A stretch of DNA of 28,560 nucleotides from Escherichia coli (GTDB lineage Bacteria; Pseudomonadota; Gammaproteobacteria; Enterobacterales; Enterobacteriaceae). The notes under the pieces were generated by a model. It saw nothing but the letters and a program-made list of their open reading frames with translations, was not told the DNA's origin and made no database searches. The stretch lies in the NCBI RefSeq assembly GCF_003334815.1, contig NZ_QOWO01000045.1. One strand, written 5' to 3'. This document shows, one piece after another, positions 3,618-5,779 of this stretch. The translations under genes were made by a program, and so were the position numbers. How positions within the stretch are numbered: position 1 is the first letter of the stretch; each line of letters begins with the position of its first letter.

Positions 3618-4163
3618 ATGGAAGTCAACAAAAAGCAGCTGTCTGACATTTTCGGTGCGAGTATCCGTACCATTCAGAACTGGCAGGAACAGGGAATGCC
3701 CGTTCTGCGAGGCGGTGGCAAGGGTAATGAGGTGCTTTATGACTCTGCCGCCGTTATAAAATGGTATGCCGAAAGGGATGCTGAAATTGAGAACGAAAAG
3801 CTGCGCCGGGAGGTTGAAGAACTGCGCCAGGCCAGCGAGGCAGATCTCCAGCCAGGGACTATTGAGTACGAACGCCATCGACTTACGCGTGCGCAGGCCG
3901 ACGCACAGGAACTGAAGAATGCCAGAGACTCAGCTGAAGTGGTGGAAACCGCATTCTGTACTTTCGTGCTGTCGCGGATCGCAGGTGAAATTGCCAGTAT
4001 TCTCGACGGGATCCCCCTGTCGGTGCAGCGGCGTTTTCCGGAACTGGAAAACCGACATGTTGATTTCCTGAAACGGGATATCATCAAAGCCATGAACAAA
4101 GCAGCCGCGCTGGATGAACTGATACCGGGGTTGCTGAGTGAATATATCGAACAGTCAGGTTAA
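3618..4163 (+). CDS. Nu1: Terminase small subunit Nu1
   Basis: 181-aa ORF MEVNKKQLSDIFGASIRTIQNWQEQGMPVLRGGGKGNEVLYD... with an N-terminal winged-HTH; lambda Nu1 is 181 aa. Confidence 0.9.
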   Translation: MEVNKKQLSDIFGASIRTIQNWQEQGMPVLRGGGKGNEVLYDSAAVIKWYAERDAEIENEKLRREVEELRQASEADLQPGTIEYERHRLTRAQADAQELKNARDSAEVVETAFCTFVLSRIAGEIASILDGIPLSVQRRFPELENRHVDFLKRDIIKAMNKAAALDELIPGLLSEYIEQSG

Positions 4164-5019
4164 CAGGCTGCGGCATTTTGTCCGCGCCGGGCTTCGCTCA
4201 CTGTTCAGGCCGGAGCCACAGACCGCCGTTGAATGGGCGGATGCCAATTACTATCTCCCGAAAGAATCCGCATACCAGGAAGGGCGCTGGGAAACACTGC
4301 CCTTTCAGCGGGCCATCATGAATGCGATGGGCAGCGACTACATCCGTGAGGTGAATGTGGTGAAGTCTGCCCGTGTCGGTTATTCCAAAATGCTGTTGGG
4401 TGTTTATGCCTACTTCATAGAGCATAAGCAGCGCAACACCCTTATCTGGTTGCCGACGGATGGTGATGCCGAGAACTTTATGAAAACCCACGTTGAGCCG
4501 ACTATTCGTGATATTCCGTCGCTGCTGGCGCTGGCCCCGTGGTATGGCAAAAAGCACCGGGATAACACGCTCACCATGAAGCGTTTCACTAATGGGCGTG
4601 GCTTCTGGTGCCTGGGCGGTAAAGCGGCAAAAAACTACCGTGAAAAGTCGGTGGATGTGGCGGGTTATGATGAACTTGCTGCTTTTGATGATGATATTGA
4701 ACAGGAAGGCTCTCCGACGTTCCTGGGTGACAAGCGTATTGAAGGCTCGGTCTGGCCAAAGTCCATCCGTGGCTCCACGCCCAAAGTGAGAGGCACCTGT
4801 CAGATTGAGCGTGCAGCCAGTGAATCCCCGCATTTTATGCGTTTTCATGTTGCCTGCCCGCACTGCGGGGAGGAGCAGTACCTTAAATTTGGCGATAAAG
4901 AGACGCCGTTTGGCCTCAAATGGACGCCAGATGATCCCTCCAGCGTGTTTTATCTCTGCGAACATAATGCCTGCGTCATCCGCCAGCAGGAGCTGGACTT
5001 CACTGATGCCCGTTATTGA
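4138..5019 (+). pseudogene. A: Terminase large subunit A, N-terminal about 290 codons only, truncated by an internal prophage deletion
   Basis: ORF overlaps the Nu1 end as in lambda and translates to the gpA N-terminus (MNISNSQVNRLRHFVRAGL...), but stops at 5017-5019 after ...ELDFTDARY, where the sequence switches to tail-fibre J. Full-length gpA is about 641 aa. Confidence 0.8.
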
Positions 5020-5779
5020 GAACACCCCTGACGGCATGCAGAGTCAGGTGCTGCTGGCGGCGGACAGGATTGCGATGGTTAATCCTGCGAATGGCAACAC
5101 AAAACCGATGTTTGTTGGTCAGGGCGATCAGATATTCATGAACGACGTGTTCCTGAAACGCCTGACGGCCCCCACCATTACCAGCGGTGGAAATCCACCG
5201 GCATTTTCCCTGACTCCGGACGGAAAGCTGACCGCTAAAAATGCGGATATCAGTGGCAGTGTGAATGCGAACGCCGGGACGCTCAACAATGTCACGGTAA
5301 ATGAAAACTGTACGATTAAGGGCATGCTGGAGGCGACTCAGGTCAGAGGTGACTTCGTTAAAGCTGTATCCAAATCATTTCCGAAACAGGCTGGTACGTG
5401 GGGTAACACGGAAACACCAAACGGGACGGTTACAGTCACCATAAGCGATGATCATAACTTTGACCGTCAAATCATTATTCCGCCCATTATCTTTAACGGA
5501 ATAGCGTATAGCGATCCGGGAAGTGGTAATAACCCGGGAGGTACAAGATACACGGGTTATGGTTTTGAAGTTCGCAAAAACGGTGTATTAATCGCATCCA
5601 GAGAAACTAAAGGGGCTATTCCCGGTAGCTACAGTTCGGTTATTGATATGCCGAGTGGCAGGGGAAGCGTCACTCTGGAGTTTAAGGTTTTCCATAAAGG
5701 CAATCAGTGGGCAGGTAATATCACCGACTGTACGGTGATTGTGACCAAAAAAGCCGCTTCCGGCATCAGTATTCGTTGA
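5006..5779 (+). pseudogene. J: Host-specificity tail-tip protein J, C-terminal fragment of about 257 codons
   Basis: From 5006 the frame encodes ...[40 protein letters not shown]..., which resembles the J C-terminal region. The track ORF 4805-5779 only reaches upstream by out-of-frame read-through of A. Confidence 0.65.

Follow-up and report, generated by a model that had tools for sequence, protein, structure and literature searches.

The DNA analysed here, a 28,560-nt stretch of an Escherichia coli contig (NZ_QOWO01000045.1) that is called the window below, very probably contains a deletion scar within a lambda-type prophage. Everything from codon 294 of the terminase gene A to about codon 912 of the tail gene J has been lost, and the two ends are joined at the trinucleotide TAT. 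Both remnants, A' and 'J, are pseudogenes, and 'J lacks a start of its own. E. coli 52F4, which was isolated from a calf in Switzerland, has the same junction in its complete genome, 100% identical over 701 and 861 nt, and the window is 99.99% identical to the 52F4 chromosome over 25.2 kb. The features of the window that bear on this reading are the following.

3429..3440, plus strand: cosN cohesive-end sequence GGGCGGCGACCT, in a cos region kept intact; the lambda 48502/1 boundary falls at window 3428/3429
3618..4163, plus strand: nu1 (nohD-like), terminase small subunit, full length, 181 aa (open reading frame)
4138..5019, plus strand: A', remnant of the terminase large subunit, codons 1-293 and TGA (open reading frame and identity to lambda gpA)
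5010..5016, no strand: deletion junction, with TAT microhomology at 5014-5016 and an imperfect CCGtTAT (6/7) (three-way alignment)
5018..5779, plus strand: 'J, the last 253 codons and the stop of the gpJ tip-attachment (host-specificity) gene (gpJ alignments and Pfam)
5798..5821, plus strand: terminator-like hairpin with a T-run between J and lom (consensus scan only)
5849..9406, plus strand: Lom'-'Stf in-frame fusion, an open reading frame of 1185 aa (mapped against four intact lom-stf regions)
15157..15171, plus strand: attR core GCTTTTTTATACTAA, where the prophage ends on its right side; the bacterial arm and ybhB-bioA come next (core read and lambda match)

The junction and the two truncated genes

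To place the junction, the window was aligned in a three-way comparison with the intact J gene of E. coli LR-50 and with four A genes, intact or longer than A', which continue past the breakpoint. At this point the A parent reads ...GATGCCCGTTAT followed by ATCTGC, the J parent reads ...GGTGCCGGTAT followed by TGAGAAC, and the window reads GATGCCCGTTATTGAGAAC. The last base necessarily derived from A is the T at 5013 and the first necessarily derived from J is the T at 5017. A homology extends to 5016 and J homology is perfect from 5014 on, without any filler DNA. In all 39 listed genomes that match the J side only, the megablast matches begin at window 5010. A direct collinear join without filler and with a few shared bases is the form that a microhomology deletion takes, and the comparison with lambda that the earlier note had proposed, with a search for microhomology at 5005-5020, gave just such a clean junction with a 3-bp overlap.

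DNA alignment to phage lambda shows how closely the left side follows that phage. Window 891-3428 corresponds to lambda 45966-48502 (99.4% identity) and window 3429-5016 to lambda 1-1589 (98.4%), so that the stretch from Rz through bor, cos and nu1 into A is covered, and the match stops exactly at 5016. The comparison across cos gave 1 mismatch in 60 nt. The nu1 gene, annotated in strain 52F4 as nohD or DNA-packaging protein, differs from that of lambda at 6 nt, of which 4 are synonymous and 2 non-synonymous.

The A' frame begins with GTG at 4138, runs for 293 sense codons to ...ELDFTDARY and ends with the TGA at 5017-5019. This stop is created by the junction and ends A' immediately, because J is joined to A out of frame. 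In the coding part (4138-5016) all 293 of 293 residues are identical to residues 1-293 of lambda gpA, and the 11 nucleotide differences from lambda, in 11 codons, are all synonymous. The only Pfam domain is GpA_ATPase (PF05876; E=4.8e-51; residues 47-285; model positions 3-237 of 247), the N-terminal domain that marks members of the gpA family. The C-terminal half of gpA, which contains the nuclease and portal-binding functions, is needed for cos cutting and packaging. A tblastn search with gpA residues 294-641 gave no match in the window at E<=1e-3. Read from its sequence, A' is a gene fragment and not a functional member of the gpA family, because the frame stops at 5017-5019, the C-terminal half has no match and the ATPase is the sole Pfam domain. 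The PGAP annotation of 52F4 likewise treats A' as a pseudogene without a C-terminus, "partial in the middle of a contig". An open reading frame of 279 aa on the minus strand (4198-5037) lies antisense to the perfectly conserved A coding sequence.

On the other side of the junction, 'J has its coding part at 5018-5776 (253 aa) and a TGA stop at 5777-5779, in a frame different from that of A'. It is 53% identical to residues 885-1132 of lambda gpJ (E=8e-82), and 252 of its 253 residues (99.6%) are identical to residues 913-1165 of an intact gpJ of 1165 aa in E. coli LR-50, with a single nucleotide difference between the two genes. The DNA of phages phi458 and cdtI matches window 5017-5850 with 99.2% and 98.9% identity, respectively. 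Pfam recognizes the end part of Phage_Tail_Tip (positions 43-138 of 139) and Ig_GpJ_C (PF12421; E=2.6e-26; model positions 1-134 of 135). The C-terminal receptor-binding domain of the gpJ family is thus complete. The roughly 900 N-terminal tail-tip residues and the start codon of gpJ are missing; homology begins at residue 913 of 1165, and lambda gpJ 1-884 gave no tblastn match in the window (E<=1e-3). In 52F4, PGAP lists 'J as a pseudogene without an N-terminus and "partial in the middle of a contig". Downstream, in the interval where the hairpin is predicted, phage Ayreon carries an annotated "terminator" feature between J and lom under the same match.

Neither the open reading frame 4805-5779 nor a shorter one from the ATG at 5006 was accepted as a real gene for a J fragment, for the upstream part consists of A bases in the wrong frame. 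The ATG and the AGGAG upstream of it were also rejected as gene signals, both being present in intact A genes, and PGAP calling a pseudogene here.

These details refine what had been proposed from a first reading of the letters. The earlier note rightly ended the A frame at 5017-5019 after ...ELDFTDARY, and its breakpoint at about codon 292 was one codon short. It had also seen a J-like frame starting at 5006; J-likeness was confirmed by the alignments to the gpJ of lambda and of LR-50, but J-derived sequence in this frame starts only with the E codon at 5018. The residues MPV that it counted as J-like, ahead of IENTPDG, are A bases read out of frame, and the codon for I (5015-5017) spans the junction. 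The sequence after 5020, whose derivation from J had been left to be checked, is part of a J segment that extends from 5017 on.

The missing interval comprises lambda 1590 to ~18155, which is 16,566 bp. Measured against phage PhiR26_1 it is 16,567 bp, and against ev099 it is 16,647 bp (1579-18225). The loss, put at well over 10 kb in the earlier note, therefore amounts to about 16.6 kb. The block from codon 294 of A to about codon 912 of J holds the 3' half of A, then W, B, C/nu3, D, E, FI, FII, Z, U, V, G, T, H, M, L, K and I, and the 5' part of J. The absence of every gene between A and J, as had been claimed, follows from tblastn searches with the lambda proteins W, B, C, D, E, FI, FII, Z, U, V, G, H, M, L, K and I, none of which matched the window at E<=1e-3. 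At the DNA level, 35 bp of the host region, close to where uvrB ends (window 23477-23511), are 97% identical to lambda 6922-6956 in the capsid gene E; this match is probably due to chance.

The prophage around the junction

The element is a lambda-type prophage at the lambda attachment site of E. coli, between ybhC and ybhB-bio. Both flanks of the junction are collinear with lambda: Rz, cos, nu1 and A' on the left, and 'J, lom, stf, tfa, ea47, ea31, ea59 and attR on the right, where window 9257-15175 corresponds to lambda 21824-27742 (99.2%). In 52F4 the whole gene order is ybhC, int-xis...exo', 'ybcO-like, rusA, ylcG, quuD, porin, essD, rrrD, rzpD, bor, ybcV, ybcW, ylcI, nohD, A', 'J, Lom', Stf, Tfa, ea47, ea31, ea59 and ybhB-bioA. 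The left attachment site, attL, beside int and ybhC, is seen in 52F4 only.

The element has two hallmarks of a defective prophage. An att core lies at its end with host genes beyond, and the window is without portal, protease/scaffold, capsid, head-tail connector, tube, tape-measure and tail-tip genes. Because gpA is reduced to its ATPase part and there are no structural genes, the prophage can neither cut cos nor build particles, whether heads or tails.

The A'/'J junction is one of several scars. At the Lom'-'Stf fusion, codons 1-116 of Lom are joined to the side tail fibre gene, Stf, from about codon 65, with about 0.5 kb lost and a 3-bp overlap at 6195-6197; this deletion is separate from the one between A and J. 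PGAP lists a Lom pseudogene and then a "phage tail protein" at this place in 52F4. The fused open reading frame is predicted to carry the signal peptide, or outer-membrane-protein leader, of Lom on a tail-fibre body. In 52F4, in a part of the prophage outside the window, about 11.3 kb of recombination, immunity and replication genes are missing between exo and the ybcO-like gene. In their place, between the truncated exo and ybcO-like genes, lies a stretch of 184 bp (positions 12386-12569 of the 52F4 locus) with no match to lambda or PhiR26_1. The A-to-J deletion had been held to make the prophage cryptic; it is sufficient alone to prevent the formation of particles, but it is not the sole lesion.

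The b-region of lambda is intact in the window (11942-14406, minus strand). Its ea59 gene (525 aa) matched the PADLOC models PtuA (E=9e-185) and PDC-M01A, and ea31 (296 aa, HNH) matched PDC-M01B. By these matches the two genes form a Septu-like pair of an ATPase and an HNH nuclease. For ea47 the PADLOC models gave no defence-family match.

The retention of cos, nu1 and int led to the consideration of a phage satellite of the cos-packaged PICI type. This was rejected, as the element is a collinear subset of a lambda-type genome. All of its segments within the window follow lambda-type phages in order, with 86-99.9% identity, where a PICI would have a regulatory or replication module of its own and a gene set distinct from that of its helper. 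No repressor, primase or replication gene is annotated in the 52F4 prophage.

Origin of the deletion

Among 5426 complete E. coli genomes, only that of 52F4 carries this junction, and a 40-mer across it had no matches in a scan of metagenome contigs. The deletion thus appears confined to one lineage, and independent support for it comes from one other genome. It also appears to be recent, because the remnants have no frameshifts or stops, the differences of A' from lambda are all synonymous and the junction occurs in one lineage.

The loss of about 16.6 kb probably took place in one step, through RecA-independent illegitimate recombination at a 3-bp homology. Possible routes would be the microhomology-guided end-joining of a broken chromosome or a template switch during replication. 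An overlap of 3 bp is in itself weak evidence for a mechanism guided by homology. According to our own calculation, in which the overlap at a random join follows P(m=k)=(k+1)(1/4)^k(3/4)^2, an overlap of at least 3 bp would arise by chance at ~5% of junctions. More information is provided by comparison with other junctions that truncate A, listed here by lambda coordinates.

This window: lambda 1589 joined to ~18156; overlap TAT; lambda attachment site; 1 complete genome
APEC O78 type: lambda 1758 joined to 17967; overlap GATA (4 bp), at 12483-12486 of the examined locus; lambda attachment site; 27 complete genomes
TA8571 type: lambda 2179 joined to 18024; overlap TAA (3 bp), at 12905-12907 of the examined locus; tRNA-Ser; 3 complete genomes
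DLP12 of K-12, aaaD/tfaD: lambda 1018 joined to 22119; 3-bp overlap, at 17660-17662 of the examined locus; argU

All four of these junctions have overlaps of 3-4 bp, which points to illegitimate recombination guided by short homology as their common route. Further places where A and J match in two pieces were found in KL53, HH107, OZ510750 and FG92-1.

The closest known analogue is DLP12 of E. coli K-12 MG1655 (nohD-aaaD-tfaD), which shares a common late backbone with the element (quuD, porin, essD, rrrD, rzpD, bor, ybcV, ybcW, ylcI and nohD). In both, cos and nu1 are kept and A is cut by an internal deletion with a 3-bp overlap. DLP12, however, retains only about 103 codons of A, which are joined to tfa, so that J, lom and stf are gone (~21.1 kb lost), and it resides at argU and not at the lambda attachment site. 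The APEC O78 type agrees with the window in its integration site (on the ybhB-bio side), in its late region and in having an A'/'J pair of pseudogenes with identical PGAP annotation; it differs in its independent breakpoints, its other A and J alleles, its intact lom and stf and its other early-region lesions. In the TA8571 type, a lambdoid prophage that shares the late region has likewise undergone a deletion from A to J with a 3-bp overlap, but the join is in frame and yields a chimeric open reading frame of 780 aa, which PGAP names "terminase gpA endonuclease subunit". The intact phages lambda, PhiR26_1 and ev099 share the gene order of the element, are 98-99.9% identical to it in nucleotide sequence to either side of the scar, and have the same cos, nu1, b-region and att core; in them the 16.6 kb from codon 294 of A to about codon 912 of J are present.

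A single deletion, as the earlier note had it, is the most parsimonious reading, and one sequence cannot prove it. No intact parent was found that combines exactly these alleles of A and J, so that a history of one prophage and one event is inferred rather than shown. As a single reference ev099 comes closest, with 99.3% identity in A and 96.6% in 'J; for PhiR26_1 the values are 99.9% in A and only 91.6% in 'J. The loss may instead have been stepwise, through at least two nested deletions or through a deletion followed by homologous replacement of J-lom-stf from another lambdoid prophage. This prophage has been hit repeatedly, with at least two further independent scars, and its two sides have different nearest relatives: A is closest to lambda and PhiR26_1, while 'J is closest to the J of prophages at other sites, being 99.8% identical to the prophage of LR-50, which has tfaR and pinR beside it and so presumably occupies the Rac site. 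A nested second deletion is also geometrically possible, since the junction of the O78 type (1758/17967, also at the lambda attachment site) brackets that of the window (1589/~18156). The A and J remnants of the O78 type are, however, other alleles (94.9% and 78% identity near the junction), which argues against direct descent; mosaic combinations of alleles are normal for intact lambdoid phages, and no intermediate occurs among the 5426 genomes. A stepwise history is therefore considered unlikely, though less so than the two explanations below.

The recurrence of such junctions might also reflect selected remodelling rather than neutral decay. Deletions from A to J that leave lom, stf, tfa and the complete J receptor-binding domain untouched would then recur because they are favoured, either as a non-lethal remnant with a host-range cassette flanked by homology, a reservoir for incoming lambdoid phages, or through a free C-terminal receptor-binding fragment of J expressed from the ATG at 5006. 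The A'/'J junctions did arise several times independently with the J C-terminus kept each time, the Ig_GpJ_C domain is complete, and an AGGAG (4988-4992) lies 13 nt upstream of the in-frame ATG. Recombination of lambda with homologous segments of defective prophages, including nu1-A of DLP12 and stf-tfa of Rac and Qin, is established (PMC3945230) and would suit the first form. Yet the clustering of breakpoints is a detection bias, because the junction search among complete genomes joined only pieces less than ~850 nt apart and so sees only junctions close to that of the window. For the same reason a breakpoint hotspot in J (lambda 17967, 18024 and ~18156) was rejected as a by-product of the query design. 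DLP12 lost J, lom and stf entirely; the AGGAG and ATG are ordinary A-gene sequence, found in lambda too, and their spacing is poor; a cytoplasmic J fragment would have neither the N-terminal tail-tip domains nor a signal peptide; and what helps incoming phages does not thereby help the host. Selection for this arrangement is thus quite improbable, and the preferred verdict on the scar is routine prophage decay through illegitimate recombination.

Least credible of all is an assembly artefact, that is, a chimera of two prophage fragments made by the assembler: lambdoid prophages are repeated (with a median of 3 matching places per genome) and repeats can be mis-joined in short-read assemblies, but the join lies at a 3-bp overlap within unique sequence and not at the boundary of a long repeat, the gene order to either side follows a single prophage all the way from the lysis genes to attR, and the independent, chromosome-level assembly of 52F4 has the same junction at 100% while differing from the window in an insertion sequence and 2 further substitutions. 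These differences indicate that the window comes from a different genome than 52F4, and the shared junction makes an artefact, which the earlier note had named as a possible refutation, very unlikely. The insertion sequence is the end of an IS4-family element (ISVsa5/IS10-like) at window 1-158, upstream of essD; 52F4 has no IS there, and unrelated prophage sequence stands in its position. The boundary between the IS and essD (window 1-420) was not found together with this prophage in any complete genome, and its four full-length matches are two-piece places spanning ~1.1 kb in other genomes.

Significance for lambdoid prophages

The deletion from A to J explains why this lambda-type prophage is dead. 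What is new is the set of exact, lineage-specific breakpoints; the phenomenon itself, the pseudogene annotation and the closest analogue, aaaD of DLP12, were established already. Breakpoints known to the base pair permit correct annotation of the two pseudogenes, A' at 4138-5019 and 'J at 5018-5779, and the junction is a possible strain marker, given that it occurs in just one genome among 5426 complete ones of E. coli.

The scar also adds a data point on the way in which lambdoid prophages lose their morphogenesis block, namely through large deletions whose ends share a microhomology a few base pairs long. What remains in such prophages is cos, nu1, the lysis genes, bor, lom/stf and the b-region, segments with which incoming phages can recombine. 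The nu1-A segment of DLP12, which is 98% identical to that of lambda, is known to recombine with lambda (PMC3945230). By analogy with this recombination between lambda and segments of defective prophages, the remnant described here, in which phage homology lies on both sides of the J receptor-binding domain, could serve as a donor of host-range sequence.
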